Below are positions 7,794-48,969 of a DNA stretch of 64,000 nt, piece by piece. How positions within the stretch are numbered: the first letter of the stretch is position 1; the number at the start of each line of letters is the position of its first letter. The stretch lies in the NCBI GenBank assembly GCA_964490645.1, contig CAZBCL010000001.1:194334-258333 (forward strand), in the 5' to 3' direction. The notes below the pieces were generated by a model. It was not told the DNA's origin, did not search any database, and worked only from the letters and a program-made list of their open reading frames with translations. Made by a program: the position numbers and the translations under genes. Source of the DNA: an uncultured Spirochaetia bacterium. GTDB lineage: Bacteria > Spirochaetota > JAHITG01 > CAZBCL01.

Positions 7794-9694
7794 CCGTCAC
7801 GACGTCCAATTGAATAAATTTGTTCTTTACTCAAATACGGCAGTTTAATCGTAAAACGTGTATACTTCTCTTCTTCAGATTCAACACTTATTGTTCCCCC
7901 GTGATTACTGATAATACGATGACTGATACTTAAACCAAGCCCCGTCCCCTGTGCTTTTCCTTTTGTCGTAAAAAACGGATCAAATATTTCTTCAAGCGCA
8001 TCTTTTTGAATACCCGCACCGTTATCAGTAATTATAATACTGCATAACGGAACATTCGATTCTATGATTCGTTTCGTTTGAATACATATTTCTTTAACAC
8101 CACTAACAGCAGTATTATGATATTTTTTATTCAAGGCAAAGATGGCATTATTGAGAATATTGACAATAACCTGCTGAAATTGTTCATGATGCAATGTAAT
8201 CGGCGGCAGCTCCGTATCGTACTCGCGATGTATTTCAATCATTGATGCACTGCATTTTGACGCAACAAATGTACATGCCATATCCAATGACGGATGAATA
8301 TCATGCGATTCAATAGCATGCATATCCTGACGTGCAAAAACCAGCAATTTTCCGACAATATCAGAAATTCTATTACACATTCCAAGAATATTCCGACATC
8401 CGGTCTGTACTTCAGTTTGCGTTATTGTATCATCATCAAGCAGCTGCTCGGTCATGAGCATAATAACATTCAAAGGATTGTTTACTTCATGTGCGACACC
8501 GGCAGCCATTTCACCAACTGAGGCAAGTTTATCCGCCTGCATGAGTTTCATCTGCACTCCGGCTAATTCCTTTGTCCGTTCTTCTATTTTCGCCTCCATC
8601 ATTTCTTTTAAAATCGTTTCTTCGGTTATATCACGCGCAATAATAATTGATCCGAGAAAACGAATATCTCTGTCAAAAAGCGGTCGAAAATAAAATAATA
8701 CATAATGTACGGATTTGTTTTTTATATATGAGACACGAATAGTATAATGATGCGAAGGATGTTCATTCATCTGCGCAATCAAACGGCGAAACTCCTGCTT
8801 TTCCTGAATAACGGATTCGATTGCGGTATATAACGTATCGCTAAATGTTTTTTGCACATGAATGACACCCGGCAGTTGAAGGGTATCAGTAAAATGAGTA
8901 TTACAAAAAACAATACGTCCTTCCATGTTAATAACACAAAGTCCATCCTGTATTTGTTCCAATATGGAGGCTTTTTCTATCTCATTAAAAAAAAGATATC
9001 GATAATACATTATCTGAACGGCAATGACACAAAAGATGATAAATGTTATGCTTTGTACAGCAGTATACGGCGGCGTATCGCCATCAGATAAATGGGCAAT
9101 AATACCGCCGGCGATAATTACGGCACTTACTGAGAAAACCAATAATACGGCAAATTGCCGCAGTACTGCTCTCTTCTTGTTCCGTACATTCTCAATGATA
9201 ACATATACCCAGAGTGATACCGCATAGACGATACCGACAATAAATGTCAACACCCATGTTTGTTTGACTATCCCATAGGTCAAGAACGAATTGCCTGTTA
9301 TTGGTTTGATAAGAATACCGGTTCCAAAATATATATCACTGATACATACTGCCGCTCCTATGACTGCCGGCAGCGGTGAAATAATTTTAATCGTTTTTAT
9401 TCGGGTTAATCCCGGAGCATAAATAGTTATTCCCAATAAAAATAAAAAGTAACCATTTAAACAAAAAGCAATACTGTATGAAAACGCAGAGAGTGCCTGC
9501 ACTGCCGCTGCCATATGAATCGACGGCAACTGCATAGTAAAAAAATTAACCGCTGCATTAAGCATCATGATTGCAAGAAATACTTTATTATAATGCTTTC
9601 GCGGGTTCTGCCAAAATATATAGAAACCGAAAAGCACTTCACTCAGCATAAATAATGCTGATAAATATACATTAAATGGCGCTTTCATAAGCAC
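7775..9694 (-). CDS. Sensor histidine kinase with an N-terminal 7-TM sensing domain, a PAS-like region, HisKA and HATPase_c.
   Basis: H-box ASVGEMAAGVAHEVNNPLN. G-boxes ITDNGAGI ... GTGLGLSISHRII. About 7 N-terminal TM helices. Its 3' end overlaps the 3' end of aroE convergently by 19 bp. Confidence 0.85.
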   Translation of the reverse strand: MLMKAPFNVYLSALFMLSEVLFGFYIFWQNPRKHYNKVFLAIMMLNAAVNFFTMQLPSIHMAAAVQALSAFSYSIAFCLNGYFLFLLGITIYAPGLTRIKTIKIISPLPAVIGAAVCISDIYFGTGILIKPITGNSFLTYGIVKQTWVLTFIVGIVYAVSLWVYVIIENVRNKKRAVLRQFAVLLVFSVSAVIIAGGIIAHLSDGDTPPYTAVQSITFIIFCVIAVQIMYYRYLFFNEIEKASILEQIQDGLCVINMEGRIVFCNTHFTDTLQLPGVIHVQKTFSDTLYTAIESVIQEKQEFRRLIAQMNEHPSHHYTIRVSYIKNKSVHYVLFYFRPLFDRDIRFLGSIIIARDITEETILKEMMEAKIEERTKELAGVQMKLMQADKLASVGEMAAGVAHEVNNPLNVIMLMTEQLLDDDTITQTEVQTGCRNILGMCNRISDIVGKLLVFARQDMHAIESHDIHPSLDMACTFVASKCSASMIEIHREYDTELPPITLHHEQFQQVIVNILNNAIFALNKKYHNTAVSGVKEICIQTKRIIESNVPLCSIIITDNGAGIQKDALEEIFDPFFTTKGKAQGTGLGLSISHRIISNHGGTISVESEEEKYTRFTIKLPYLSKEQIYSIGRRDGQLMHA

Positions 9695-9834
9695 AGTAGT
9701 ACACCGTTTTCGTATATTTTACAATTACGATTTTAAATATTTTTACCGCAATAATAAATCAGTATTTATGAAAAATTAAATATGCCGATACTCTATAGTA
9801 CATACGAAACACGATATACGCTCTATAAGGATAA

Positions 9835-10797
9835 ATGACGATGAATATAGTTCGCATAATATCAATATTAGTCTTCAGTATCTGTTTATTAACCGCTGCA
9901 TTTTATCAGCCCCCATTATCCGACGCTGTTAATTATATTGATATATTCCCAAACAATGAACACTGGCTAACCAGTATTGATTGGACATGGGGAGTGCTCA
10001 CTGTTCGTGCACGAGTCCCTGTTCCGGAACCGATAGTCAATCCTTCAGATCCACGCTATGCCGATCCACGCTATCCGTCTGTACGGAACTATGCACAAGC
10101 GCGACTATGGGCAGAACAGCGTGCACGTGAATTAGTTTATTGTAATATGCTTGAAGATGTTCAAAAATTGCCGGTAACATTCAATTCAAAAATGAATGAT
10201 TACCTTCTGCTGAATAAAAACTTTCAACGCCTTGCACAAGAACGTATTTCAAAATTACCCCTTAACGATTTGCGCTATGAACGTGATGACAATAATAATA
10301 ATTCAATAACCGTTATCGCAGAGCTGAAGCTTTCATTGTACGGCACTGACGGTTTAACCGGCATGATGGATCCGCGCGAACCAATAACGTGGTTTCTTCC
10401 CTTCTCAACACAAAAACTTCCGAAAATTGTTATACCGGAAATAGTTTATAGCGAAGCATATCCCTCAATTGTTATTGATGCCCGCGGATTAACAGTAACC
10501 CCCGCTCTTGCTCCAAATATTCTTGATACACATGGTACGGTTATTTACCGTCCTGAATATGTTCGCCCTGAAGCAGCAATAACACGGGGGCTCGTTGCAT
10601 ATGTTAAAAGTTCAGATTTTCTCTCCGCTGCTCAACGACAGGCACAAAACGGTATTATTGTCCCCGCACTGCGAACGTTACCGAACAATACTACTGATCT
10701 GGTTATCGGTGAAGAATGGGCTCAAAAAATATACTCATCTCCCGAAACGCAACAGGCATTACGAAACTGCATGATAACCATTATCATTGATGATTAA
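9835..10797 (+). CDS. Hypothetical secreted protein, signal-peptide bearing.
   Basis: N-terminal hydrophobic signal (IISILVFSICLLTAAF). No family recognised with confidence. Confidence 0.5.
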   Translation: MTMNIVRIISILVFSICLLTAAFYQPPLSDAVNYIDIFPNNEHWLTSIDWTWGVLTVRARVPVPEPIVNPSDPRYADPRYPSVRNYAQARLWAEQRARELVYCNMLEDVQKLPVTFNSKMNDYLLLNKNFQRLAQERISKLPLNDLRYERDDNNNNSITVIAELKLSLYGTDGLTGMMDPREPITWFLPFSTQKLPKIVIPEIVYSEAYPSIVIDARGLTVTPALAPNILDTHGTVIYRPEYVRPEAAITRGLVAYVKSSDFLSAAQRQAQNGIIVPALRTLPNNTTDLVIGEEWAQKIYSSPETQQALRNCMITIIIDD

Positions 10798-10863
10798 TAT
10801 ATACCGTTATACGCACTTCAGTCATTGAGCACATACCCGCGCAAACCGTCATATACCCGATAA

Positions 10864-11760
10864 TTACGAAGCAAGAAACTCAACTAATTCGGTAGAGTGT
10901 GCATTTTCACGAAGATTATTAATAGCTTTTTTCTCAATTTGACGAATCCGCTCTTTACTAAGCCCGTATCGCGAACCAATTTTATTAAGCGACAAATGAC
11001 GAATATCATTCAGCCCAAATCGCATCTCAATGACTTCACGCTCAATTTTTGACAATGCTGAAAGCATGGAATGCAATACGGAAATAAGCGAATTATCTTC
11101 CGAATGTTTTTCCGGCAATGTAGTATTGTTATCAAAAAGCACTTCACTGAAAGGACGATTGTTTTCTTCATCTGTACCGGAATCCAGCGGCGTATAGTGC
11201 GCTGCGAGATTTATCAGATGACTTACTTCTGATTCATTGATATTCGTCTCCTGTGAAACTTCCGCTGCCGTCGGCATTCGATTAAGGTATCCCGATAATG
11301 AATGTATTGCTTTATCTATTAATTGAAGCTCTCCTGTTTTATTCATTGGCAAACGTATAAGTCGGCTTTTTTGTGATATTGCTTTAAGTATTGACTGACG
11401 AATCCACCATACGGCATATGATATAAAATGATACCCGCGGCGATAATCAAATTTTTCAACAGCCTGAATCAATCCTATATTTCCTTCACTAATCAAATCA
11501 CTGAGGGTAATCCCCGGAACATGATATTTTTTTGCAATAGAAACAACAAAACGAAGATTTGAGGTTATTAATAATTGTTTTGCCGCCTCATCACCATGTG
11601 CGGCACGCCGCGCAATTGTTATCTCTTCTGATCGTGAAAGAACCGGTATTGAATGTATGTCCCGAAGATACATTCGCAGCGAATCGGCACGTGGTGAATG
11701 TATGTTTTTATATATGGCCGTCTCGTCGGTGCTATACTTATTTGATCTCGTTGAATGCAT
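10864..11760 (-). CDS. Sigma-70 family sigma factor, group 2 (RpoS/RpoD-like, 298 aa).
   Basis: Regions 2.1-2.4 (LITSNLRFVVSIAKKY, GNIGLIQAVEKFDYRRGYHFISYAVWWIRQSI), region 3, and region 4 (GLSKERIRQIEKKAINNLR). Too short for a primary RpoD. Longer and more RpoS-like than FliA. Confidence 0.8.
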   Translation of the reverse strand: MHSTRSNKYSTDETAIYKNIHSPRADSLRMYLRDIHSIPVLSRSEEITIARRAAHGDEAAKQLLITSNLRFVVSIAKKYHVPGITLSDLISEGNIGLIQAVEKFDYRRGYHFISYAVWWIRQSILKAISQKSRLIRLPMNKTGELQLIDKAIHSLSGYLNRMPTAAEVSQETNINESEVSHLINLAAHYTPLDSGTDEENNRPFSEVLFDNNTTLPEKHSEDNSLISVLHSMLSALSKIEREVIEMRFGLNDIRHLSLNKIGSRYGLSKERIRQIEKKAINNLRENAHSTELVEFLAS

Positions 11761-18078: not shown

Positions 18079-19383
18079 TTATTCGACGTAAAAATGCACA
18101 GACCGTTCATCACATGCACCGGGGGCAAGTTTCATAATACCGAATTTTTTATCAAACGGTTCTTGGGCAGAGTGATCATCACACCCTTGCCATGGTTCAA
18201 TACAGATAAAAGGAGCATTCGGCGTTGACCAGATGCCAAGATGCGGCATATCGTTAAATTCAATAACTGAAGTTATTTTTGCAGCCGGATCATATAATTT
18301 TACCGTTCGGTTTTTTATATGCGTCATATCAAATGTATACGTCATGCCCAGTTCTTCTTCAGTAACAGGGAAAACCCCGCCAAGTGTTTTTTCTATTGAG
18401 GAACCGGTCATAAAAGAATTATTATCCATTTCATACTGCGTATACTGCCCATGCGGCAACAGCAGCTGAACGTTTGATTTTGTGCCTTTTTCGGTTACCG
18501 GTGATTTCAATCCGGGATGCCAGCCAAGCTGATAATACATATCAGTATTATCAGTATTCCGTACGGTCATCGTTACGGTTAATAAGGTGTTTGCACCGTA
18601 TCGGGAAAGTTCATACCGCACGATAAACTCATGTTTCCATGGATATACACAATCGTTAATCATACGCTCATTAATACCATACTCCGCCCATACGGAAACA
18701 TCAGTTGCGCCCGCACCGTATAATTGAAACTCAGTATCACGAGCAAATCCGTGATTGTTTAATTCAATACGGGTCCCATCAGTCATTACTGATTTTTTAT
18801 TAACCAACCCGCCGACTATCGGAAAAAGAAACGGCGCATGTCGTTTCCATCCGTTATGTGTTGGCGTCGGTTCACCGTCATTCCATAAAAGCGGTATCGT
18901 CGCTCCGGCCTTCAGCGCTCGTATGCTTATTAATTCAGCACCAACTCGGGCAATGGATATACGTAAATGCGGTGCAATCAGTTCATCCCGATCAGATAAT
19001 TGTTGAAAAGAGTATACTGCTTCTATATTATTTTTTTGTTGTTGTTTTGTCTTTCCTGAAAAATATATTAGCCAAATATTTCGGGCATAAACAAATGTCC
19101 CGAACGCCTGCCCGATAATAATAACAATATCCTCACGCCATATTGCATACGACAACAGCATCAGCCCGCCAATCAATGATAAAAACCAAAATGCCGGCGG
19201 CACAACACTGCGTTTTTTCTTTTCTGAGGTAATCCACTGGATAACCATTCTCCCGCCGAACATACACTGCGCAAGAAATCCGAAAAGTATCCAACCGACT
19301 ACTAAGGGATCATCAGAAAATAGTTGCCCTACTGCACGAACGGTATTTTTAATAAGATGACTTAAAATTGATACATACACCAT
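18079..19383 (-). CDS. Fusion protein: N-terminal lipid-A-biosynthesis N-terminal domain (LAB_N, 2-3 TM) plus C-terminal aldose-1-epimerase (mutarotase)-like domain.
   Basis: N-terminal LGWILFGFLAQCMFGGRMVIQWITSEKKKRSVVPPAFWFLSLIGGLMLLSYAIW looks like LAB_N. C-terminal NHGFARDTEF and beta-rich sequence resemble the aldose-1-epimerase fold. Lies 17 bp downstream of the GT2 gene. Confidence 0.55.
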   Translation of the reverse strand: MVYVSILSHLIKNTVRAVGQLFSDDPLVVGWILFGFLAQCMFGGRMVIQWITSEKKKRSVVPPAFWFLSLIGGLMLLSYAIWREDIVIIIGQAFGTFVYARNIWLIYFSGKTKQQQKNNIEAVYSFQQLSDRDELIAPHLRISIARVGAELISIRALKAGATIPLLWNDGEPTPTHNGWKRHAPFLFPIVGGLVNKKSVMTDGTRIELNNHGFARDTEFQLYGAGATDVSVWAEYGINERMINDCVYPWKHEFIVRYELSRYGANTLLTVTMTVRNTDNTDMYYQLGWHPGLKSPVTEKGTKSNVQLLLPHGQYTQYEMDNNSFMTGSSIEKTLGGVFPVTEEELGMTYTFDMTHIKNRTVKLYDPAAKITSVIEFNDMPHLGIWSTPNAPFICIEPWQGCDDHSAQEPFDKKFGIMKLAPGACDERSVHFYVE

Positions 19384-19400
19384 ATCTGTTTTACCACCTG

Positions 19401-20111
19401 TTAATAGTTCTTTTTAATGTGATATACAATATTTCTGTCTTTCATCCACCGTACGGCACGCAAATCCCGTGATGCCCGAAAAACACGATTCCATACGCCA
19501 TACTTTGCACTGCCGTATTTTCGATGTCGGTGATGTACCGGAATCTGTGCAATACGCCCGCCTTCCATTTCTATTAATGACGGGAAAAAACGATGCATTC
19601 CCTGAAACATTTTAATTTTTTGCAGCAGTGAAGTACGAATACATTTAAATCCGCAGCCGGTATCTTTAATTGATTCATGTAAAATCCGATTGCGCCACCA
19701 ATTTGCCAATCGTGATGAAATACGCCGTATAATGCTATCTTGCCGTCGAGTACGAATCCCGCACACAATATCAGCTTTTTGTGCAGCAGTATAAAAAGCC
19801 GGAATATCAGCCGGATCATCCTGTAAATCCGCATCCATAGTAATAACCCACTCACCGCGAACTTCACTGAATGCTGCATCAAGCGCAGATGATTTCCCAT
19901 AATTTCGGTCAAACTGAATAATTCGTATATGCTTATTTTTCTTGTGCAGCTTTTTTAAAACTGCCGGCGAACGATCAGTACTGCCGTCGTCGATACATAT
20001 AATTTCATATGACACCCGCATTCCCTGTAATACCGGAATTAATTCGGAGAACAGCTCCTCAAGGCTTTCTTCCTCATTACAGACGGGAATAATAATACTC
20101 AGTTTTATCAT
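19401..20111 (-). CDS. GT2 polyprenol-phosphate glycosyltransferase (ArnC/GtrB/DPM1-like).
   Basis: SIIIPVCNEEESL, ICIDDGSTD, ITMDADLQDDP (DXD). 236 aa, typical of undecaprenyl-phosphate sugar synthases. Confidence 0.85.
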   Translation of the reverse strand: MIKLSIIIPVCNEEESLEELFSELIPVLQGMRVSYEIICIDDGSTDRSPAVLKKLHKKNKHIRIIQFDRNYGKSSALDAAFSEVRGEWVITMDADLQDDPADIPAFYTAAQKADIVCGIRTRRQDSIIRRISSRLANWWRNRILHESIKDTGCGFKCIRTSLLQKIKMFQGMHRFFPSLIEMEGGRIAQIPVHHRHRKYGSAKYGVWNRVFRASRDLRAVRWMKDRNIVYHIKKNY

Positions 20112-20199: not shown

Positions 20200-22074
20200 C
20201 TATCTGTATTTATGGTTATTTTCCAGTAAATAATACGTCATAAATAATTTCTTTTCATCACCCTTGCCCTTCAGCCAATCAAGTATATCCGCTGTATCAA
20301 CTGAATACTGCCACGTTTTCTCTTCCCGCAGAATGTGCCATGATGGCGGCGGTTGCCACGTATCAGGAATAGTGTTTTTATACCCGCCAAACCATGGTAA
20401 CGGGGGATTGGATATCGGATTTTTTACGCCGCGACTGGTCGCAATAACAAGCCAGTTTGTTTCGTCATTTTTCTTTTCTTCAAGAAAGGCATCCGCTTGT
20501 GCCATCTGATATGGATAATATGCCGCATCAGGACGTTTATTCGCTTCAGCGGTTATCCATGACCAGCGTACATGATTGAGATTAATCATTGCAAATTGAG
20601 CATCTGCCTGTTCAGAAAATATTGTACGTGCCGCACGCGCTAACGATATTTCCGGATCAGGTTTTATTATTGGAAAGACAATCCCATACATGAGTGTCGG
20701 GAGCATGATATAAGTTATGCCAATAGCAAGAAGTGTTTCGTATGCTTTTTTCTTCCGTAATTGTACAAATGCAATTGTGATCGGAATAGGAATAATAAGA
20801 AATACGATAAGCAATGGGGTTATGGAAATATTCCATGGAATAAGTGCACGTCCTGCAGCTGAAAGGATAACTGCAATTATCAGCCCGGCAAACAAACCGC
20901 CCGCGGCAGCTCCCCATACTCCAACAGCAAGAATTGATGACCATATCTTTTGAGTAAAAACACGAGCCGAATGAAGTTTTTCCAGTGCTGCTGCCAGAGC
21001 GAGACTGAAAACAAATGTTAAATAAACCAGATAATTCGGTTTGTTACTAATAAGATATACCGTAAAAAGCATGACGAATCCAAAAAACACACTGTATAGA
21101 GTAAAAAGATTTCGTGTATCAGATAGATATTGTTTTTTTATTTTGCGCGAAAAAAGAATAATGAGTGCCGGTACTGACCAAGGGAAACAATAGCGGAGGA
21201 ACACCATCGGATACCACCATATATGATGCAATAATGTTTCATACGTCGCCCGTAAGCGACCGCTTTCCTCATGTGTAAGCCACCCCAGTAATGGGTCACG
21301 ATACGGGGTTGTCAGTAAAACAAGGTACCAGCCCAGCATTAACAGCACCATACTTAAAAAACCGGGAATACTGATTAAGCGAAGTAAATGTTTCCAACGG
21401 TTTTTACCTTTCGTGAACAGTGCAAATAACGGAAATACACCGACAGCATATAATGGGCCGACCGGACCTTTTAATGCACCACTAATGCCCAGTGATATCC
21501 AGCTTAATAATACAATAGTACGTTGATGCTTTTCTTTCTTTATCATACCAAGATACACTTCAAGAAATCCGTAAAACCCGGCACTCATAAATAAATTGTT
21601 TGCACTGTCAATCATTGCAACACGACTGTATTCAAATGTCAGAAACATGCCGGCATATATAAGCGCAGCAAGTTCACCAACACGATCACGATTATACAGG
21701 CGTTTTCCTGCAATCCAGAGTAATACCATTATCCCCAGCATGGATAATAAAGACGGCAGTCGCGCAACCCATATACGCACCCCAAGCAGTTTATAAAACG
21801 ACGCCACTATCCAATACCAGAGAATCGGTTTTTGGAAACGTTCCCGTTCAGCATAAAACGGCGGATGTACGGTGTCTTTTAAATATTGCGCAACAAGAAA
21901 ATCACCGGTGTCAAGCATACGCATCGGCGCATAAATATAAAAGGTTTCATCGCCCTGATATGATACCGGATTATCAATAACAAAACTAAAAAGAATCGTC
22001 GTTACGATAAGAAGAATAAGCAGCCGGACCGCAGAAGCATCATTGGCGGATAACCGTAATTGTTTCATTGCCAA
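20200..22074 (-). CDS. ArnT-like GT-C family glycosyltransferase (GT83), polytopic membrane protein.
   Basis: YQGDETFYIYAPMRM resembles the ArnT/PMT DE-x-x-Y motif. About 12 TM helices. 624 aa. Lies 12 bp downstream of metG. Confidence 0.75.
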   Translation of the reverse strand: MAMKQLRLSANDASAVRLLILLIVTTILFSFVIDNPVSYQGDETFYIYAPMRMLDTGDFLVAQYLKDTVHPPFYAERERFQKPILWYWIVASFYKLLGVRIWVARLPSLLSMLGIMVLLWIAGKRLYNRDRVGELAALIYAGMFLTFEYSRVAMIDSANNLFMSAGFYGFLEVYLGMIKKEKHQRTIVLLSWISLGISGALKGPVGPLYAVGVFPLFALFTKGKNRWKHLLRLISIPGFLSMVLLMLGWYLVLLTTPYRDPLLGWLTHEESGRLRATYETLLHHIWWYPMVFLRYCFPWSVPALIILFSRKIKKQYLSDTRNLFTLYSVFFGFVMLFTVYLISNKPNYLVYLTFVFSLALAAALEKLHSARVFTQKIWSSILAVGVWGAAAGGLFAGLIIAVILSAAGRALIPWNISITPLLIVFLIIPIPITIAFVQLRKKKAYETLLAIGITYIMLPTLMYGIVFPIIKPDPEISLARAARTIFSEQADAQFAMINLNHVRWSWITAEANKRPDAAYYPYQMAQADAFLEEKKNDETNWLVIATSRGVKNPISNPPLPWFGGYKNTIPDTWQPPPSWHILREEKTWQYSVDTADILDWLKGKGDEKKLFMTYYLLENNHKYR

Positions 22075-29480: not shown

Positions 29481-31508
29481 TTACTGTAAGGGCAAGAGTA
29501 ATAATTTATTTGCGTGTTGATAAGCACAGTATCTCCCATCAGGAGAAACCCCGTAATACTCATCAATATGACTGACCAGAAAAGTTAGATACTCATTAAT
29601 ATGCAACGGTGTCATCCCGCCAACACGATTATAGTAATATCGATAGAAATCAAAAAGAACAAGACTTCGATTATCGCGCCAATCAATAGCTCCATCACCG
29701 GTGGTATCCGTAAACCGCCCAACCAGCAATACCATTGTTGAACCGGGAAGAAGTTCGCAATACTCAATCGCTGCCGGCTCGGGAAGAAAAACAATCTGCC
29801 GGTACAGCATATCATACACCGAAAGCTTTTGTTTATCCTGATGTAAAAATACAATATACCGTCCGTCTGATGACCATATAAATTGATGCGGAACAATATC
29901 ACTGACCTGAAATAATTTCTCACTACTTTGATCATGAACATTAATCAAATAAAACGCCGTATCCTTGATATTTATTTTGCCGTCGCGATTTATATCTTCA
30001 AGCATGAAAAAACCTGAAAGGTCCCTTCCATCCGGAGAAAATTGCGGTATTGACTGACGGAATGTACGAAATCGCAGCGGCGGAAGTGATGGCGTTGAAA
30101 GATCCTGCCAATGAATAACGACAGACGCCGCATCATCTGAATAATACATCCCCAATAAAATACTGTCATTATACGAATACTGCATATCCACTGCCGTATA
30201 TGATCCGGGCATCGCCGCTGACAACCCATTAATACGAGGAAGAATAATACTTCGGTCAAATACCGTGTTATGATCCGGAAGTGCATAGACTGAGCCATTC
30301 ACCAGAAGTGCACATTTATTATCAAGTCGCTCCCAACACAGCGTTTCAGGAATATGAGGACTAACCGTTTCAAGCATATGTTCAAGGTGAGCATTTTTCC
30401 CATCCGATGATTGTATAATACGCTGCGGTAATGAGACCTGTTCTTTATCAGAAATTAAGAGCTCCGAATCATGATAATCAACACGACCATCCTTATTGCG
30501 ATCAGTAAAAAAACCGCTATATGCAAAATAACAACTATCGGAATCCCAACGCACCCCGGTTATATTATCAAAATGACATTCTTGAATAGTTTGTAAAAAT
30601 TGTTTTCCCGCATGACCAAGATACAAACCAGTATCATCTGAAATAATGAATTTCTTTCCATCCGGCGACCACCAGAAACGATATTGCGGACCTACTGCAT
30701 TTCGTATACGTATTGGCGTCCCGATCTGCACTGCTCTATCAGACACATAGGGAGAAAGACGGCGCGTTGAAACCGTGGCAAGATGTGCAATATCATTTTC
30801 ATTGGCCTGCATAATTGCTTGTCCGGATTTTGGACGCTCCCGCATTCGAGTAATAACACCATGCGCCGTATGCGCACTGACATTCGTTACCATGACAAGC
30901 GCTATTGTTTCATCTGCGGCATTCTTCACCGCATAGACATCATGCTGCTGTACAATATAATCCTGTCCCATTGAAAATGTTATTGCAAGATCACGGCGTT
31001 CAGTGATAAAACCATGCAACGGTAAAAATCGATGCAACTGCTCAGTAAAAAATTCAGCTGCTTGTGCGGCAGTACTTCGGTCAGCAAAAAAATACCGATT
31101 CGTAATCAATAACGGCTGCTGTTCCTCCCAATCAACTCCAATTATCGTCATTGTTGCTTGTATACGATTATTCGTTGCACAAATAGTAAAAATTAGTGTT
31201 GCATCGTTTGTTCGAGCAGCTCGCCGGATAAACGCTCTATCAACATCGGGCAGATCAGGAAGGATATTGGTATGACCGGGAGTACGCACATATAATAAAT
31301 TATACCATGGTGTTGTTTTAATCTGATAGGTTATATCAGCAATAAACGTATGAAACAGTGTTTCTTCAGACGTCCCTTCCTGTATATGTGACCCCCATAA
31401 AAGAACCCCAATTTGATTTGTCTGACGTTTGGTATACCGTGTTGATGCAATCGTTGCGATAATTAATAAAATGCTTAATAGTATAATGAAGCGTCCTCGT
31501 TGACGCAT
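29481..31508 (-). CDS. Periplasmic beta-propeller protein (TolB/PD40-like blades) with DxDxDG calcium-binding-type loops. Start trimmed to MRQRGRF behind a GGGAGGGG ribosome-binding site.
   Basis: Signal peptide (FIILLSILLIIATIAS). PD40-like WWSPDGKKF, WSSDGRYIVF, VSPDGRYCAY. Loops DRNKDGRVDYHD, DINRDGKINIKD, TTGDGAIDWRD. Confidence 0.6.
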   Translation of the reverse strand: MRQRGRFIILLSILLIIATIASTRYTKRQTNQIGVLLWGSHIQEGTSEETLFHTFIADITYQIKTTPWYNLLYVRTPGHTNILPDLPDVDRAFIRRAARTNDATLIFTICATNNRIQATMTIIGVDWEEQQPLLITNRYFFADRSTAAQAAEFFTEQLHRFLPLHGFITERRDLAITFSMGQDYIVQQHDVYAVKNAADETIALVMVTNVSAHTAHGVITRMRERPKSGQAIMQANENDIAHLATVSTRRLSPYVSDRAVQIGTPIRIRNAVGPQYRFWWSPDGKKFIISDDTGLYLGHAGKQFLQTIQECHFDNITGVRWDSDSCYFAYSGFFTDRNKDGRVDYHDSELLISDKEQVSLPQRIIQSSDGKNAHLEHMLETVSPHIPETLCWERLDNKCALLVNGSVYALPDHNTVFDRSIILPRINGLSAAMPGSYTAVDMQYSYNDSILLGMYYSDDAASVVIHWQDLSTPSLPPLRFRTFRQSIPQFSPDGRDLSGFFMLEDINRDGKINIKDTAFYLINVHDQSSEKLFQVSDIVPHQFIWSSDGRYIVFLHQDKQKLSVYDMLYRQIVFLPEPAAIEYCELLPGSTMVLLVGRFTDTTGDGAIDWRDNRSLVLFDFYRYYYNRVGGMTPLHINEYLTFLVSHIDEYYGVSPDGRYCAYQHANKLLLLPLQ

Positions 31509-31784
31509 ATGCTGCCCCTCCCGCTGTATTCTTATTGCAGTATACCTAATATTTTGTATTTTGCAAGTCATTTGACAAGTATAGAAACCGAGGGATGAAA
31601 TCCAAGAAGAACGTGCACAGCATGCAACATTCACATAAACTCATTTATTTGTAATTGGAAAACCATCAACACTTTTAGTAACTGCCGCAACCATTTTTAT
31701 ATCCCCGACATTGCATATCCGTAATAATACCCTCTGAATTCAATTTGCATCAATACTATTGTACTACTGATATGAACATACACC

Positions 31785-32113
31785 TTAATTCACGGCGAGT
31801 TTAACTATCCGATACGATTTCATATGAAGCAGGTGAAAATTCGGAATCATGTATATCAACACTCTTCATAAAAAAGATTAATAAATTCTATACTATTTAC
31901 ATTTTATGGCACATATCCCCCGATCTATTATTTAAAATCCTGTTATTATTGCATTGTTATACAGTTTGTTTTGTAGTTGTATTAATATGTTCCAACGATA
32001 ATATAATTGATATACAATACATTTCTTCGCCCCATTTACTATCAGATATACTATTCTGCTGCACTATGAGACTGCCATGAATAATAATTAATTACGTTGT
32101 TTTTATGATTATC
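31785..32113. repeat. Direct repeat copy A (329 bp), 328/329 identical to copy B.
   Basis: Aligned by eye base for base with 33897..34225. Single G/A difference at 32079 vs 34191. Confidence 0.9.
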
Positions 32114-33737
32114 TGTTACTTTTTTCTTTTTTTACAACCACTAAATGCGTATAGTTTGAATCAATAGTATATTTATACTTTTCTTTTAATTGAAACGCGT
32201 CCAGTACTTTTGTTTGAAGCAGCGCCAATTCATCCTTATAAACAATAAAATAATCAGGATCATTCCGTAGAATCGGCTCTATTGTCGGATTTTGAGAAAA
32301 GGAAACCGTGCTATAATTTTCAAAATATTTTAATAAGTACATATTTACACATAAAGTGTTCTTTTTATCAATTTGATTAATAATCTTTTCCACATCTACT
32401 GATATTTCTTTAACTTTCTGATCAGTATGTAATGTTAAAAACCGCCAACACCTACCAATAGGACTGCCGATAATGGCTGTTACTAATAATACTATTACTA
32501 TCCCTGTAAGGATATATAATACAGTTTTATTGTTTTTCGTTGTGCTTTTTTGTATCGTATGCGTATCATTACTTTCATGTGCGGTCTTCCGTGCATTGCA
32601 AAGCAAACAATATTTTCCGGAAATAATACTGCTTGCAATTACTTCTAATCGATGCAAACCAACAACAAACGCCAAAAATGCAAAACTATATATTTGTGTA
32701 AAATGCCAGCTGCATTCTGTCAAAAACGGACAATTTTGCATTAATACTAACTTCGGCAATTGCAGTAATAAAATTTCCGGACATAAAAGACTTATATATA
32801 AAAATGATTTCGTATTGATTAAAATCTTTTTAAGTATAGATATATTTATTATGAGCCATGGATGCATTAACAAATACACACCAACCTTAAAAACGTTATC
32901 CCCGTATTCCCCGTTTTTTGAAACCAGCGCCATATTATACGTCATGCTATGTGCGATTGAATATGAATAGTGCGAATAATGCTTTATTAATAGTGTTGCA
33001 CCAATAAAGTATACTCCACTTATAAGTAATGTAATCAAAGCCGTTTTTCTCATCTCTTTTTTAAGGAAAAGAAAAAACGCAAACAGTATCATATAGACAG
33101 CCATTTCTTCTTTAATCAAAAGAATTGCCGCTAAGCATATATAATATGCAAATTTATTATTTTTTATAATAATAAAATAAAACGCCCATATAATTGCCGG
33201 CAAAAACAGCATATCAGGATGAAAACCGTACACACTATCATTGAACAATCGTATATGATTCGGGATAATCAAGTATAATAATGCAACAAGAAATGGAAGA
33301 AGCCGAAATGTATTGGTATTATCTTTCGGACGTATATCTAACGACGTGATAGTTGTGTCAACTATTGCATAAACTGGAAATAGTGCCGAAACATACGCCA
33401 ATGTCCATAGCACTAAAAGGGCAATTGCCGATTTAAATAACGCAACAACCGGAAGAAAAAGAAGTAATAGTAAATATGCGTGTATCCCAAGCTGAAAACC
33501 ATATATGTTTTCATAAAAAAAATGTCCATGCAATGAGTTATTTAATACTTGATAATATAAAAACAAATCAGAACAATATTTCAAATTATTGAAATGCCAC
33601 AGCTTATAAAATAAAAAGAAAACAAATGCGACACCAAAAAGTATCAATAAACTAAAATGAAAACTTTTCGCGGCAGCTGCTTCATTAACAGCAAGCGCAT
33701 CTGATGACGGAAGTTGTGATTGTACGTTTCTCTTCAT
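32109..33737 (-). CDS. Polytopic membrane protein of unknown function (possible GT-C-fold or DUF2079-like), 542 aa.
   Basis: At least 12 hydrophobic helices. Rich in F/L/Y/K. The stop codon lies inside repeat copy A. Confidence 0.5.
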   Translation of the reverse strand: MKRNVQSQLPSSDALAVNEAAAAKSFHFSLLILFGVAFVFFLFYKLWHFNNLKYCSDLFLYYQVLNNSLHGHFFYENIYGFQLGIHAYLLLLLFLPVVALFKSAIALLVLWTLAYVSALFPVYAIVDTTITSLDIRPKDNTNTFRLLPFLVALLYLIIPNHIRLFNDSVYGFHPDMLFLPAIIWAFYFIIIKNNKFAYYICLAAILLIKEEMAVYMILFAFFLFLKKEMRKTALITLLISGVYFIGATLLIKHYSHYSYSIAHSMTYNMALVSKNGEYGDNVFKVGVYLLMHPWLIINISILKKILINTKSFLYISLLCPEILLLQLPKLVLMQNCPFLTECSWHFTQIYSFAFLAFVVGLHRLEVIASSIISGKYCLLCNARKTAHESNDTHTIQKSTTKNNKTVLYILTGIVIVLLVTAIIGSPIGRCWRFLTLHTDQKVKEISVDVEKIINQIDKKNTLCVNMYLLKYFENYSTVSFSQNPTIEPILRNDPDYFIVYKDELALLQTKVLDAFQLKEKYKYTIDSNYTHLVVVKKEKSNR

Positions 33738-33896
33738 TAATTTATGCTAGTATTTTGATATTAAGAAGTCAAGAATTATAAACTCAACTATATTACTGAA
33801 ATAATAATATCAAAATATACCGATATGATACTATTCTGCACACCGTAAAATAACAAATATTTGAAACTATATAAATCATACATCACTGCTGAATAT

Positions 33897-34225
33897 TTAA
33901 TTCACGGCGAGTTTAACTATCCGATACGATTTCATATGAAGCAGGTGAAAATTCGGAATCATGTATATCAACACTCTTCATAAAAAAGATTAATAAATTC
34001 TATACTATTTACATTTTATGGCACATATCCCCCGATCTATTATTTAAAATCCTGTTATTATTGCATTGTTATACAGTTTGTTTTGTAGTTGTATTAATAT
34101 GTTCCAACGATAATATAATTGATATACAATACATTTCTTCGCCCCATTTACTATCAGATATACTATTCTGCTGCACTATGAGACTGCCATAAATAATAAT
34201 TAATTACGTTGTTTTTATGATTATC
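33897..34225. repeat. Direct repeat copy B (329 bp).
   Basis: See copy A. The two copies are offset by exactly 2112 bp. Confidence 0.9.
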
Positions 34226-34370
34226 AGTTACTTTTCTCAGAAAAAGATTATATCTTATGATTTATAAAAGCAAGCATTAGGTGTACATCAATAATGATTT
34301 ATTGATTTATATATAACCATGAAATACATTTTATGTATATTAATAATTCCTATCACATTGGGAGATTGAC

Positions 34371-35318
34371 ATGTATCAACGAATGCCATGCATTATACGT
34401 ATCGGAATAATTATATTCATACTCGGAACGATATCGATATCACATGCTGAAATCATGCGTGTTGCCGTAATGGATTTAAATCCGCAAGGTGTTGATGAGA
34501 ATACTTCACGTGGTGTCAGCGACCTTATCCGCGGAGAACTCATTGGCCGCGAAAATCTGATTATTGTCGAACGTGGTCAAATGAATCGTATTCTTGAAGA
34601 ACAGGGGTTTCAGCAATCAGGCTGTTCCGATACCGAATGTGCGGTACAAATAGGAAAATTACTAAGTGCACAATACATGATACTCGGATCAGTAACAAAA
34701 TTCGGCACGACATTCACCATATCCGTTCGCATGGTTGATGTTGAAAAAGGGACCGGGATTGCCAGTGAATCGACTGATGCTCATGGTGAATCAGAATTAC
34801 CGGGGACAACACGTTATCTTGTTAATAATCTTGTTGAGAAAATCAATACTGCCCGCTCACAATCAACACAAACACCATCACGCAAAATAAAAACAGACTC
34901 ATCTCAAAAAACACGAAAGAATACATCATTACACCAATTCCGCAACAATGCTCGCCCATTATTACGGACATGCGCATATATTGGTTATGCAGGAGCACTC
35001 GGAATGGGGGTTATGGGAATAATGGCAAATACTGAACTAAAAACATATAAAAACGAATCAGAAGATCTGTATCAGAAATACAACAAAGAACCGAGTTCCC
35101 AAAACTGGGAAAGTTATGAATCGCATTATACTACAATGAAAGACACGCAAAAAAAGCGGAACTCATATTATGCAATGAGTGTCGGTTTTTGTGCAGTCTC
35201 AACGGTTCTTTTCCTCATTCCGGGTCCTGCTGCAACTGCCGGGACATTCATACGTGAACATATTGTTCTTGTACCAACTGCTGATACCACAAGCATTTAT
35301 ATTAATTATAGGTTTTAA
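34371..35318 (+). CDS. Secreted protein with an N-terminal LpoB/CsgG-fold-like domain and C-terminal hydrophobic segments.
   Basis: MRVAVMDLNPQG...LIIVERGQMNRILEEQGFQQSGCSD...AVQIGKLLSAQYMILGSVTKFGTTFTISVRMVDVEKG follows the LpoB/CsgG-type pattern. GGGAG ribosome-binding site. Confidence 0.5.
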   Translation: MYQRMPCIIRIGIIIFILGTISISHAEIMRVAVMDLNPQGVDENTSRGVSDLIRGELIGRENLIIVERGQMNRILEEQGFQQSGCSDTECAVQIGKLLSAQYMILGSVTKFGTTFTISVRMVDVEKGTGIASESTDAHGESELPGTTRYLVNNLVEKINTARSQSTQTPSRKIKTDSSQKTRKNTSLHQFRNNARPLLRTCAYIGYAGALGMGVMGIMANTELKTYKNESEDLYQKYNKEPSSQNWESYESHYTTMKDTQKKRNSYYAMSVGFCAVSTVLFLIPGPAATAGTFIREHIVLVPTADTTSIYINYRF

Positions 35319-35343
35319 TTGATTTGAGGAGGAAAACAGGTAT

Positions 35344-36879
35344 ATGAAAAATACACCATTATTTACCGGTATTATTATATGCGCTATTATTGCAGTACTT
35401 ATTCTCTCATGCACTAAAGTCCCTGAATTAAGCCCGCGTGATGAGAGTCGGGAACAAATAGATCCGTCAGACAGCAATCCCGGTGAACGTCATTTTGGTC
35501 CGGGCATATCATGGAATCCCACAAACGGATATTTTATTCCCGATAGCTGTACAATTGCGTTATGGCATTTTGATAATAATTTCCGTGATGTTTTTAATCT
35601 CCATGAATTCACTAATGAGAATGCGGTGCTGGTTGATTCTCCCTTTGGACGGGGAGTCGAACTGAATGGGGCTGATGCACTCCTGTACTGCAATGCATTA
35701 CGCGGCTATGATCACGCATTAACCATTGAAATGTGGGTTAAACCATATGATCAGACAACATCGGGAATACTGATTGATACATGGGCGGGCGCACCTGTAT
35801 TATACGGACCAACTAATCAACGCTCATTCAGTTTATCATACGCTATGGATGAAACACTGCATCGGAATATTTCACCTGACGGATATAGTATAGCTTCAGC
35901 AGCAACCATGAACGGCATCGGTTCTGAGTTAATGTATGTTGTATATACCTGTGATACCTCCGGCGAAAAAATATACATTAACGGAGAAGAAATTGAAAAT
36001 CTGCATCGACCAACCCCCCGTATCAATGATACCGCAAAAACCTATCTCTCAATAGGCGGAAACCGTCCAAATATGACTGACTTCTTTCATGGTATGATTG
36101 ATATGGTTAGAATTTCATCGGTTGTACGGTTCCCGAATGAAATTCATGAATACTGGAATATGGCATCCTCAAAGGTCATGCAATGGAAATGTCAATCGTA
36201 TATTGATGCGGAAGCAAATACTACCGCAACTTTGAAAGATAAGGCTACTGATCAAACTATGTCAAGTATACAAAATGTTTCTCTCAGTTCTTCCGGTGTT
36301 ATCGGCAAATCACTTGATTTTGCCGGGAATGGTTATATTAACGTCGGAATGAGAACGATAAGCAATGAAATGTCTATCAGTTTTTGGTTTAACCGGCAAT
36401 CTATTCCTCTCAACAGCGGTTTCACCAATTGTATGGTTTCATATAATCAAGGTGAAGGTGAAAACTCACCTAATTATGATTGCCGTATATTTTTAAGCGG
36501 CACCAATAATATTCATGGGCGCACATACACACAACCCCCATCAGCTTCAGACCGCGTTGAGGATATTTTCGCAAATACTATACTGTATAATAGTTCATGG
36601 CATCATGTTGTTATTATTCTAACCAATACAGCAAGTGACTCAAAACTGCACATGATTATTGACAATAAAATAACCTATAATGGAACCGGGACAGCCCCTA
36701 ACCTTCCGCGATTATTTGATTCAACGATAAATGCGTCCTTTTTCCTTGGTGCTTTTGACACTGCAACGCACCTTTACTCCGGAAAACTTGATGAAGTAGG
36801 ATTATGGGATCGTGCTTTAAATGATTGGGAAGTAGAATTATTGTATAATAACGGGTATGGGCGAAATCCGTTTAATTAA
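35344..36879 (+). CDS. Lipoprotein with two concanavalin-A-like/LamG (Laminin_G_3-type) domains.
   Basis: Lipobox ILSC. Two jelly-roll LamG-like blocks (ALWHFDNNF...LTIEMWVKP and KSLDFAGNGYINVG...SFWFN...SWHHVVII...LGAFDTA...LDEVGLWDRAL). GGAGG ribosome-binding site. Confidence 0.65.
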   Translation: MKNTPLFTGIIICAIIAVLILSCTKVPELSPRDESREQIDPSDSNPGERHFGPGISWNPTNGYFIPDSCTIALWHFDNNFRDVFNLHEFTNENAVLVDSPFGRGVELNGADALLYCNALRGYDHALTIEMWVKPYDQTTSGILIDTWAGAPVLYGPTNQRSFSLSYAMDETLHRNISPDGYSIASAATMNGIGSELMYVVYTCDTSGEKIYINGEEIENLHRPTPRINDTAKTYLSIGGNRPNMTDFFHGMIDMVRISSVVRFPNEIHEYWNMASSKVMQWKCQSYIDAEANTTATLKDKATDQTMSSIQNVSLSSSGVIGKSLDFAGNGYINVGMRTISNEMSISFWFNRQSIPLNSGFTNCMVSYNQGEGENSPNYDCRIFLSGTNNIHGRTYTQPPSASDRVEDIFANTILYNSSWHHVVIILTNTASDSKLHMIIDNKITYNGTGTAPNLPRLFDSTINASFFLGAFDTATHLYSGKLDEVGLWDRALNDWEVELLYNNGYGRNPFN

Positions 36880-47170: not shown

Positions 47171-47530
47171 ATGGCAAAAGTTCTGTTAGCAGATGATTTA
47201 GCATTTATCAAAATGGTTCAGCAGGAAGTACTCAAAGATAATGGATTTGAAGTTGTCGGCGATGCTGTTGACGGTGTTGATTGTGTTGAAAAATATAAAA
47301 AACTGCGCCCTGATATTGTCATTATGGATATTACCATGCCGCGTATGGATGGATTGAATGCATTACGGGCAATTTTAAGTCAGGATAAAAAAGCACGTGT
47401 TGTAATATGCTCAGCATTAGGACAGCAAAAATTGATTATTGAAGCCATAAAAGCAGGGGCAAAGGATTTTATTGTCAAACCCTTCCAGCCTGAACGACTT
47501 CTTTCCGCATTACATAAAGCCATGAAATGA
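47171..47530 (+). CDS. cheY: Chemotaxis response regulator CheY (single REC domain).
   Basis: KVLLADD, DIVIMDITMPRMDG, ICSALGQ, K in DFIVKPF: canonical receiver-domain residues. Confidence 0.88.
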   Translation: MAKVLLADDLAFIKMVQQEVLKDNGFEVVGDAVDGVDCVEKYKKLRPDIVIMDITMPRMDGLNALRAILSQDKKARVVICSALGQQKLIIEAIKAGAKDFIVKPFQPERLLSALHKAMK

Positions 47531-48969
47531 AACGTATCGTCTGGATAATTCTGATAACAGCACTATTTTACTCAACGTCTTCGGCATTCCTCTTTTTTAA
47601 AAAGAAACCTCCCCGCTCGGAAAAAATTACCGTGAGTGTTCATGACAAACCATACCGCCTTATAGCGATACTTCCTTTTACAAACCGTACTGGAAAAAGT
47701 GAGTTTGATTATCTGAGTCTAAGCATACCCCATTACCTGCATTCCGCACTCACCTCAATAACAAACGTTATCGTATCAACGAATGATATTGCTGTTGCAC
47801 CGGCATTACTAACCAATACCAATGTTATACTTTCTTATGACAAAGACTTTAATCGCACGGTGAAGGTTCTTTCAATGAAAAGCGTTGTATCACTCTTAAC
47901 GCAATGCACTGCATGCCATTCGTTAGCGGCAACCGCAACAAACCTTGCGGTTGACTATGTGGTATACGGATCATTTACTGGTTCATCTCGGGATAATCTC
48001 TCATTTAAAACATATTTGTATTTCGTACAGCGCCAAAGCAATGCCGGTCCGTTTGAATTATCGTATCACGGCGATGCACTGAATGCGCCTCCAAAAATAG
48101 CAGCCCAAATAAAAGCAGCGTTTTATCATACACCCGGCGGCGCATTAACCGTTACTTCCGATCCGCCGGATGCCCTCATTTATGCGAATGGACGATACTG
48201 CAATCGCACACCTTTCACCATAGAATATTTGCCGGTTGGCACATATGTTATAACAGTCCGAAAAGACGGATGGCACACACAATCAAATACTATTTGCATG
48301 ACAACAAATGGATATGCCTTAACAAACATTACACTACTGAATGCGCGAACTGCTGCACCAATTGCTATCACGACTTCTCCGACGAATGCATTAATTATGT
48401 TTGATGCACGCCCGATCGGAAAAACACCATTGATCGTTTCAAACCTTGTTCCCGGGCGTTATCGAATACGCTTGAGTGCTCCCGGATATATTAATGAGTA
48501 TCATCGAATACGTATTAATAAAACCGCGAACCGCCCGCTTATGATAACGATGCAGCCGAAAACTCGTACAAATGAAATCGCACGTATTTATCACCAATCA
48601 CGTTGTCTTATGTGGACATTCACGGGGACAGGACTTGCACTGACTATCGGAGCGGTAATTGCTATCGGAGAAGTTGAACGAAATCAGGAATTGCCGGCAA
48701 CGATTGCATATGATAATCCGAACAAGGAGACGCTCATTAATGAATACTATCGAAAAGAAACACTGTGGCGATCTGCAGCAATTGCCTGCGGTTCACTTTC
48801 ATTAGTATCATATGTTACTGCAATTATTTTTATGATAAAAGCAGCGAATTATTCAAGTTATGAATACGGCATGATATTAAATACGCCATCAGATCGTATA
48901 GTGCATCCACTCCCTGCGATAATCAGCCCGCACTACTGTGCCGTACAGCTGATACAAAAACAATTTTAA
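47527..48969 (+). CDS. Secreted PEGA-domain protein with a C-terminal TM anchor.
   Basis: Two PEGA-like blocks (LTVTSDPPDALIYANGRYCNRTPFTIEYLPVGTYVITVRKDGW; IAITTSPTNALIMFDARPIGKTPLIVSNLVPGRYRIRLSAPGY). Signal peptide. ATGA overlap with the cheY stop. Confidence 0.65.
   Translation: MKRIVWIILITALFYSTSSAFLFFKKKPPRSEKITVSVHDKPYRLIAILPFTNRTGKSEFDYLSLSIPHYLHSALTSITNVIVSTNDIAVAPALLTNTNVILSYDKDFNRTVKVLSMKSVVSLLTQCTACHSLAATATNLAVDYVVYGSFTGSSRDNLSFKTYLYFVQRQSNAGPFELSYHGDALNAPPKIAAQIKAAFYHTPGGALTVTSDPPDALIYANGRYCNRTPFTIEYLPVGTYVITVRKDGWHTQSNTICMTTNGYALTNITLLNARTAAPIAITTSPTNALIMFDARPIGKTPLIVSNLVPGRYRIRLSAPGYINEYHRIRINKTANRPLMITMQPKTRTNEIARIYHQSRCLMWTFTGTGLALTIGAVIAIGEVERNQELPATIAYDNPNKETLINEYYRKETLWRSAAIACGSLSLVSYVTAIIFMIKAANYSSYEYGMILNTPSDRIVHPLPAIISPHYCAVQLIQKQF

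Follow-up and report, generated by a model that had tools for sequence, protein, structure and literature searches.

The window, by which we mean the whole 64-kb stretch of DNA analysed here, contains two copies (A and B) of a 329-bp sequence in direct orientation, which bracket a single gene for a membrane protein (Table 1). An earlier, sequence-only reading of this DNA had described two 329-bp direct repeats, identical at 328/329 positions and spaced 2112 bp from start to start, with one 542-aa gene between them whose stop codon lies inside copy A. Our analysis of the window reproduced this description, the stop codon being located at 32109-32111, although the identity of 328/329 is valid for the window's assembly only. 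The sole mismatch between the copies in this assembly falls on repeat position 295. A faint similarity continues for about 12 nt past the repeat, up to 32125 and 34237, at the cost of two extra mismatches; the repeat is accordingly given as 329 bp, at most about 341 bp, and the segment between the copies as 1783 bp.

Table 1. Coordinates of the repeat copies, the enclosed gene and their surroundings in the window.
Feature	Position	Strand	Description
Left flanking gene	29481-31508	minus	675 aa from ATG at 31508; N-terminal membrane anchor
Repeat copy A	31785-32113	none	329 bp; between DUF2079 stop codon and 675-aa gene start
Minimal homogenised tract, copy A	31845-32011	none	167 bp; from comparison of the window with the ENA contig
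Retained A/B difference	32079 (G; A at 34191)		present in both assemblies; 35 nt from the repeat's right edge
Enclosed gene	32109-33737	minus	intact; 542-aa DUF2079 membrane protein, predicted GT-C glycosyltransferase-like fold
Enclosed gene's own upstream region	33738-33896	minus	159 bp, 22.6% GC, outside the repeat
Repeat copy B	33897-34225	none	329 bp; between DUF2079 upstream region and divergent CsgG/LpoB-like gene
Right flanking operon	34371-36879	plus	CsgG/LpoB/TolB_N-like lipoprotein 34371-35318; LamG-domain protein 35344-36879

The repeat has a GC content of 28.6% and its longest ORF encodes 43 aa, in keeping with its earlier description as non-coding and AT-rich; a database look-up of this 43-aa ORF found it not on record. 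The pair is the sole direct repeat of at least 40 nt within the 64-kb window, and the resemblance of the copies is far beyond chance, as a match to the first 60 nt of the repeat was obtained in 0 of 100 shuffles. The earlier reading had named a multicopy element as the observation that would speak against it, and only two copies were found, with neither a third copy nor diverged fragments (blastn, word size 7) across the ~82 kb of genome scanned. An exact 30-mer from the repeat was absent from the JGI metagenome contigs and viral contigs searched, and the 2.4-kb repeat-gene-repeat unit had no plasmid or phage match in blastn searches. The sequences just outside the repeat edges exhibit no significant similarity, which leaves a larger, older duplication unsupported, and a scan for tandem repeats revealed nothing relevant.

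The enclosed protein matches the Pfam family DUF2079 (E 4e-24), and its AlphaFold2 model (pLDDT 85, pTM 0.87) consists of a polytopic helical membrane part and a C-terminal soluble alpha/beta domain. Foldseek returned GT-C enzymes as all of the top matches (STT3, ALG9, DPY19, ArnT, and AftA; TM about 0.43-0.50), and a DUF2079 profile search of PDB sequences gave no sequence-level match to solved structures. From the Pfam, AlphaFold2, and Foldseek results, the protein is predicted to be a GT-C-fold glycosyltransferase-like membrane protein, which both bears out and specifies its earlier assignment as a polytopic envelope-type membrane protein. An Asp near the first loop, D57, is conserved in at least 90% of a 30-sequence family alignment. 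The nearest relatives of the protein are only two sequences at 36-37% identity among 1.84 billion representatives; their gene contexts are unrelated and carry no comparable flanking repeats. No relatives of the DUF2079 protein were detected in JGI metagenome contigs, NCBIfam contains no above-cut-off family for the enclosed gene or its neighbours, and literature searches found no papers on DUF2079 or the run accession. The gene has a GC content of 31% and a GC3 of 0.276, compared with 0.31-0.39 in the neighbours, and this low GC3 hints only weakly at a foreign origin. The amino-acid composition of a membrane protein accounts for most of the deficit in GC, and low GC as strong evidence of foreign origin was discarded, as the deficit resides mostly in codon positions 1 and 2.

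The upstream region of the enclosed gene includes a 13-nt perfect inverted repeat (33751-33763 and 33805-33817) as well as a promoter-like TTGACT-17-TAGCAT. To the left of the repeats, the flanking ORF extends to 31634 (717 aa) in the window ORF list, and the 675-aa protein has no detectable homologues. To the right, the CsgG/LpoB-like gene has its ATG at 34371 and is separated from the end of copy B by 145 bp, a measured value close to the approximately 150 bp by which copy B had been placed upstream of the LpoB-like/LamG operon. The CsgG-like protein found distant partial matches only (at most 52% identity, N-terminal domain) and no syntenic relative among the GTDB species genomes. In word-indexed searches, the DUF2079 and 675-aa proteins each retrieved only themselves, and neither P0004 nor the ORF at 9835-10797 was on record when looked up. 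No close relatives of the organism were present in any collection searched, and the host lineage is essentially unsampled.

Pfam scans of 29 window proteins did not reveal any transposase, integrase, or recombinase domains. There are no terminal inverted repeats at the repeat ends and no target-site duplication at the repeat flanks, and a tRNA scan identified neither tRNA nor tmRNA genes in the window. An insertion sequence or composite transposon was rejected for want of a transposase, terminal inverted repeats, and a target-site duplication, and an integrated island with att repeats was rejected since recombinase domains and a tRNA target are missing from the window. The verdict of the sequence-only reading that the unit is not an insertion sequence was thus upheld, in that transposase or integrase, terminal inverted repeats, target-site duplication, and flank homology are all lacking. 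Searches against Rfam produced no match in the whole window at gathering score and none in 31500-34400 at E<=1. Neither strand of the repeat folded more stably than shuffled sequence (z +0.87 and +0.44), and the Rfam and folding results gave no support to a structured non-coding RNA or riboswitch in the repeat.

A second, independent MEGAHIT assembly of the same organism (ENA contig ERZ27262693 k141_461477, a k=141 unitig) allowed the copies to be compared between assemblies. Over the 61,468 bases compared, the window and the ENA contig agree at 61,458. Of the ten differences, nine fall inside 167 bp of copy A (31845, 31867, 31908, 31912, 31923, 31962, 32004, 32005, and 32011), a clustering with a probability of ~8e-23 under uniform spread, and at all nine the window carries the base of copy B, which itself has the same sequence in both assemblies. 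The remaining difference is at 48034, where the window also differs from Logan. In the ENA contig, copies A and B are identical at 319/329 positions (97%), and the ten differences between them comprise eight transitions and two transversions. The homogenised tract extends at most over 31785-32078, giving a size range of 167-294 bp, and lies wholly within the repeat, as conversion or collapse demands. Moreover, the Logan contigs of SRR8439058 end exactly at the repeat edges, so that a graph built independently bears out the branching.

In at least one population, the two copies are thus 97% identical, and the duplication is not very recent, as shown by the 3% divergence of the ENA copies. The 99.7% identity in the window is secondary, the centre of copy A having been overwritten with copy B as the template. 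The difference at 32079/34191 is common to both assemblies; it therefore predates the homogenisation, and the copies had diverged before the populations split. Of the two origins that had been offered for the near-identity, recent duplication or ongoing gene conversion, the former did not survive the finding of 97% identity in the ENA contig, and the latter, or else a collapse by the assembler, agrees with the match to copy B at 9/9 positions.

As to the cause of the overwriting of copy A, we slightly prefer biological, RecA-type gene conversion to merging by the assembler. The changes are clustered, match the paralogous copy at 9/9 positions, and are confined to the repeat, compared with one difference in the other 61 kb. 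A strong competitor, to which we assign somewhat less than an even chance, is that the copies in the window were made near-identical by the assembly, the true copies being as far apart as those of the ENA contig (~97% identity). Bulge collapsing is a habit of metagenome assemblers such as metaSPAdes, and a de Bruijn assembler whose k went no higher than ~55 could have merged the copy centres as a strain "bulge" and used the consensus twice via read pairs. At k=55 the diverged copies have 19 k-mers in common, which occupy only positions 1-60 and 228-294 of the repeat and would leave a bubble between these two blocks; at k>=77 they have none, which makes the k=141 unitig trustworthy across both copies. 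The pattern of loss suits this route as well, since the retained difference lies so near the right edge that at k=55 it can still be tied to unique sequence, and all nine lost differences are at least 61 nt from both edges. Furthermore, the 294-bp exact repeat in the window has 154 shared 141-mers and is uncrossable by unitigs alone; spanning it must have taken read pairs or long reads. However, a central conversion tract would leave the identical pattern, and, given the difference at 48034 from both ENA and Logan, the window may come from a population that is not quite the same, one where a real conversion took place. Very improbable, by comparison, is the reverse course of events, in which a recent duplication produced copies that were first identical and copy A of the ENA population later imported nine differences from a diverged relative. 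Short recombination imports occur in bacteria, and the two assemblies differ only in the tract and one other base, which fits such an import. Nevertheless, confinement of the imported tract to a 329-bp repeat would need a coincidence, no donor relative was found in any collection searched, and the difference at position 295 in both assemblies shows that the copies had diverged before the split.

Taken together, we regard the repeat pair as a passive structural scar, with a secondary, copy-B-templated near-identity and no indication of a switch or of a function of its own, a reading that we hold with a probability of about 0.7. The spacer that separates the CsgG-like operon from the 675-aa gene is AT-rich, and a piece of it would have been doubled, leaving one copy on each side of the gene segment. 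The simplest route may have been that a circular unit of repeat plus gene integrated by a single crossover (Campbell-type integration), or an equivalent event; alternatively, a tandem duplication of gene plus spacer could have been followed by the loss of one gene copy. The insert is placed between direct copies with sharp edges and no target-site duplication, as Campbell-type integration would leave it. Secondarily, copy B sequence replaced 167-294 bp in the centre of copy A, through real conversion or through merging by the assembler.

The other readings of the locus assign a role to the repeats or detach them from the gene. One of them, put forward for an envelope protein in the sequence-only reading, is an ON/OFF or copy-number switch that works through RecA; the protein switched would be an envelope glycosyltransferase, and conversion would maintain the identity of the repeats. 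The arrangement has some of the features expected of it: direct 0.3-kb repeats bracket one complete gene, deletion of this gene would leave a clean divergent intergenic region, envelope glycosyltransferases of the GT-C type are a class that is often variable between strains, and the evidence is compatible with recombination between copies A and B. We found no evidence for such a switch, though, and consider it quite improbable. The gene is present in all assemblies seen, the copies have persisted long enough for 3% divergence (10 substitutions), and no recombinase or dedicated machinery is encoded in the window. In addition, the ENA k=141 unitig continues through both diverged copies with no branching. 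Judging from how unitigs are constructed, deletion or amplification products, if common, should show up as hybrid repeats and branch points, so that recombinant molecules are unlikely to have been abundant in that sample; and a deletion by recombination is irreversible and hence would not make a true switch. As with direct repeats of 0.3 kb in general, the gene between the copies can on rare occasions be deleted or amplified, and there is no sign that this is put to use. That frequent RecA-dependent exchange between the spacers, of which a conversion separating two almost clonal populations would be a visible instance, yields subpopulations without the GT-C gene, or with an amplified one, seems to us highly unlikely; if true, it would mean envelope-glycan heterogeneity in an uncultured, deeply branching bacterium. 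A regulatory role, also raised in the sequence-only reading, is compatible with the proposed passive scar and is somewhat easier to entertain, yet still unlikely, and we found no evidence for it. The repeat would then be a module (promoter, operator, or leader) whose duplication gave the DUF2079 gene a control in common with the 675-aa gene on the minus strand or with the CsgG-like operon on the plus strand. Its positions are suitable: read on the minus strand, copy B precedes the start of the DUF2079 gene by 159 bp and copy A precedes that of the 675-aa gene by 276 bp, and on the plus strand 145 bp lie between copy B and the CsgG-like gene. But promoter and terminator scans remained at chance level (21 promoter-like matches observed versus 22.8 expected), Rfam gave no match at E<=1 and folding resembled that of shuffles, and each gene retains unique proximal upstream DNA, the promoter-like site of the DUF2079 gene being outside the repeat. 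Least credible to us is that the repeat is a dispersed multicopy intergenic element, MITE-like or REP-like, which is found beside the gene by chance. Its non-coding, AT-rich nature would suit such an element and the scan covered ~82 kb, but within this range there are two copies only and no diverged fragments, terminal inverted repeats and target-site duplication are absent, and no matches were obtained in the viral, JGI metagenome, plasmid, and phage collections.

The biological weight of the locus is small, as dispersed direct repeats and their homogenisation are well-understood outcomes of homologous recombination. The lesson lies rather in the reading of assembled genomes: "328/329 identical" in one metagenome-derived sequence does not amount to a recent event when a second assembly gives 97%, and an assembler can render repeat copies identical. 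If the homogenisation is real, the locus captures, as it occurs in nature, a conversion tract of 167-294 bp that separates two populations with a single base of difference over the other 61 kb. The locus also provides a confident GT-C-fold model for DUF2079, a family with neither a solved structure nor a known function.

Several known systems resemble parts of this locus. Composite transposons, IS-flanked cassettes, and MITEs likewise present a gene between two copies of one sequence; here, in contrast, transposase, terminal inverted repeats, and target-site duplication are missing, and the repeat is not multicopy in ~82 kb. The enclosed protein is akin to GT-C enzymes (ArnT, PglB/STT3, PMT, ALG9, DPY19, and AftA) in its polytopic helical part and C-terminal alpha/beta domain, whereas the likeness comes from the predicted fold and not from a sequence-level match to solved structures. 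Intrachromosomal gene conversion among short dispersed repeats, the concerted evolution known from rRNA and tuf copies, also replaces clustered differences exactly by the bases of the other copy, in a repeat-confined tract that leaves the older flanking difference untouched; the repeats here differ in being non-coding and only 329 bp long, and their homogenisation is known from two assemblies and can be mimicked by an artefact. Campbell-type integration structures and merodiploid duplications differ from this locus, which has no known circular donor, vector, or second site and no observed event of integration or excision. The structural likeness is nonetheless close, with a segment between direct homologous copies of a few hundred bp, sharp boundaries without target-site duplication, no need of a recombinase, and reversibility by homologous recombination, and a tandem duplication plus deletion is an equally compatible two-step origin.

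The two non-coding repeats, copy A and copy B, bracket a single gene of the DUF2079 family, and the description given in the sequence-only reading holds, as the coordinates, the direct orientation, the 2112-bp spacing and the one mismatch were all confirmed. This mismatch falls at repeat position 295 (32079 G in copy A, 34191 A in copy B), and the similarity decays over ~12 more bases to 32125 / 34237, with 2 further mismatches. No other direct repeat of at least 40 nt occurs in the 64-kb window. The repeat has a GC content of 28.6% and contains no ORF longer than 43 aa, and its first 60 bases never recurred in shuffled sequence. The segment between the copies (32114-33896) consists of one minus-strand gene and the gene's own 159-bp upstream region, with the stop codon falling in the final five bases of copy A; geometrically, a 2112-bp period is present 1.16 times, and its edges are sharp.

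Features of the repeat unit and its neighbours
Feature	Position	Strand or orientation	Description
Repeat copy A	31785-32113	direct, with copy B	
Repeat copy B	33897-34225	direct, with copy A	
DUF2079 gene	32109-33737	minus	542 aa
Left neighbour of the repeat unit	29481-31634	minus	717-aa ORF
Right neighbour	34371-35318	divergent	CsgG/LpoB/TolB_N-like lipoprotein gene, followed by a LamG-domain gene

Look-ups by exact protein match led to an independent MEGAHIT contig (ENA ERZ27262693, k141_461477, 330 kb) and to Logan contigs of SRR8439058. Over 61,468 compared window bases the ENA contig differed at 10 positions, nine of which were confined to 167 bp of copy A (31845, 31867, 31908, 31912, 31923, 31962, 32004, 32005 and 32011), a clustering with a probability of ~8e-23 under uniform spread. 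Copy B was the same in both versions, and at all nine positions copy A of the window carried the copy B base. The ten differences between the copies in the ENA assembly (319/329 identical) comprise 8 transitions and 2 transversions and look like natural divergence, while the difference at position 295 is common to both assemblies and therefore predates their split. Because the ENA copies are 97.0% alike, the nine window bases are of copy B type and the position-295 difference is common, the duplication is older than the split of two nearly clonal populations, and the 99.7% identity in the window arose secondarily with copy B as the template, contradicting the earlier proposal of a recent duplication. 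The tenth difference, at 48034 within a PEGA-domain gene (47527-48969), is C in the window and A in both the ENA and the Logan contigs, which shows that the window derives from a population or consensus slightly different from theirs.

In the Logan data (k=31), contig ends coincide exactly with the branching that the repeat imposes. The contig with the gene corresponds to 32084-33926 and the one to its right begins at 34196; on the right side the break precedes the first diverged base by 30 bases, and on the left side it lies 30 bases inside copy B. Genes to the left of the repeat, but none to its right, are found on a contig of the 50-200 kb class, suggesting that a third assembly was also broken there.

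Shared k-mers were counted between the two copy regions in either version. The diverged ENA copies shared 19 k-mers at k=55, in two blocks (positions 1-60 and 228-294), and none at k≥77, including k=141, so that the k=141 unitig running across them can be trusted. For the homogenised window copies, 240 were shared at k=55, 218 at k=77, 168 at k=127 and 154 at k=141; this repeat is uncrossable by unitigs alone, and the window assembly therefore needed read pairs or long reads. We regard real gene conversion, as put forward in the sequence-only reading, and homogenisation of copy A by a bubble-merging assembler as roughly evenly matched, with a slight preference for the former. At k=55 the blocks shared by the diverged copies enclose a bubble. 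Merging it would remove precisely the nine central differences and spare position 295, only 35 nt from unique sequence, as is seen in the window. A real copy-B-templated tract of 167-294 bp yields the same pattern and is plausible, although confounded by the possible artefact, and the extra difference at 48034 shows that the window does not just repeat the ENA and Logan consensus. Import of the nine differences into the ENA lineage from a diverged relative is unlikely, as the tract would have to land entirely inside the repeat by coincidence, and such a donor is absent from all collections searched.

The enclosed gene is intact and most likely encodes an envelope glycosyltransferase of GT-C type using a lipid-linked sugar, judging from its match to Pfam DUF2079 (E 4e-24, profile positions 11-421 of 459), a confident AlphaFold2 model (30-sequence alignment, pLDDT 85, pTM 0.87) and the best solved-structure matches of this model, all GT-C-fold glycosyltransferases (STT3, ALG9, DPY19, ArnT and AftA; TM ~0.43-0.50). 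By sequence, no match was found in the PDB; among 1.84 billion representatives, searched exhaustively with HMMER, there were 431 relatives at E ≤1e-3 and only two at 36-37% identity. Beside one 36%-identical relative (GCA_042568435.1, JBHPIR010000031.1), arrays of ~20-nt units (like ATCCTGAATTCATCATTGTC) at 9564-9732 and 11221-11341 flank an adjoining SLH-like gene (9810-11003). The GC content of the gene (31%) is reduced mostly at codon positions 1 and 2 owing to membrane-protein composition; its GC3 of 0.276, compared with 0.31-0.39 in neighbouring genes, weakly hints at a foreign origin. Upstream lies a 13-nt perfect inverted repeat (TATTTTGATATTA, 33751-33763; TAATATCAAAATA, 33805-33817; 41 nt between arms), and between the arms begins a minus-strand promoter-like sequence, TTGACT-17-TAGCAT (33772-33744), its -10 hexamer overlapping the left arm and ending ~7 nt before the ATG; together they may form an operator pair or a leaderless arrangement.

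The surroundings are ordinary chromosomal DNA: the window carries metG, gidA, ndk, pta, ackA, a sigma-70 factor, rmuC and flagellin together with several envelope and glycosylation genes, and no transposase, integrase or tRNA gene was found in its 64 kb. CheX, flagellin and PEGA genes also occur. Three GT-C-like membrane proteins (861-2720, 20200-22074 and the DUF2079 protein, with 18079-20111 noted alongside; two of PMT_2 type) suggest an envelope-glycosylation theme, together with a GT2 glycosyltransferase and a protein fusing LAB_N to an aldose epimerase. JGI and Logan records begin the left gene at 31508, giving a 675-aa protein (MRQRGRFIILL..., membrane anchor); a word-indexed search of 5.8 billion proteins detected no homologue, and its Pfam matches were all weak and sub-threshold. 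In the right-hand lipoprotein, the CsgG, LpoB, TolB_N and DUF3280 profile matches are confined to the N-terminal ~130 residues, and a weak sub-threshold NCBIfam match to the TP0183 family (Treponema) was noted.

With the insert removed, the left and right genes would be divergent neighbours ~750 bp apart, with the repeat mid-spacer. The observed geometry would result if a circular molecule bearing this spacer together with the gene had recombined with the chromosomal spacer by a single crossover; a tandem duplication of gene and spacer in which one gene copy was later deleted would also fit, and the ~12-nt decaying extension into the 3' end of the gene is compatible with the latter route. No relatives that would reveal the ancestral state of the locus were found in the collections searched, and the organism appears essentially unsampled. 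Against GTDB species representatives, the CsgG-like protein reached at best ≤52% identity and aligned only through its N-terminal domain; the matching genomes belong to Neomarinimicrobiota/Fidelibacterota, Elusimicrobiales, Brevinema and Treponema. Several window proteins are single-member clusters.

Once formed, the repeats would be substrates for homologous recombination, and the conversion signature, if real, would demonstrate exchange between them. In principle the DUF2079 gene could be deleted or amplified, but an ON/OFF or copy-number switch finds no support: the gene is present in all assemblies seen, the copies lasted long enough for 3% divergence, the ENA unitig has no branches although recombinants would make hybrid repeats, and deletion would be irreversible. 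The proposed shared regulation is likewise unsupported, and promoter-like matches in the repeat are at chance level. As the sequence-only reading rightly held, this is not an insertion sequence; a composite transposon is rejected as well and a MITE is unlikely, for want of a transposase, terminal inverted repeats, a target-site duplication and further copies in the ~82 kb scanned. Also rejected are an att-type island (no recombinase or tRNA gene) and a known or evidently structured RNA, and no resemblance to plasmids or phages was found. The flanking repeat is a real but ordinary structural feature.
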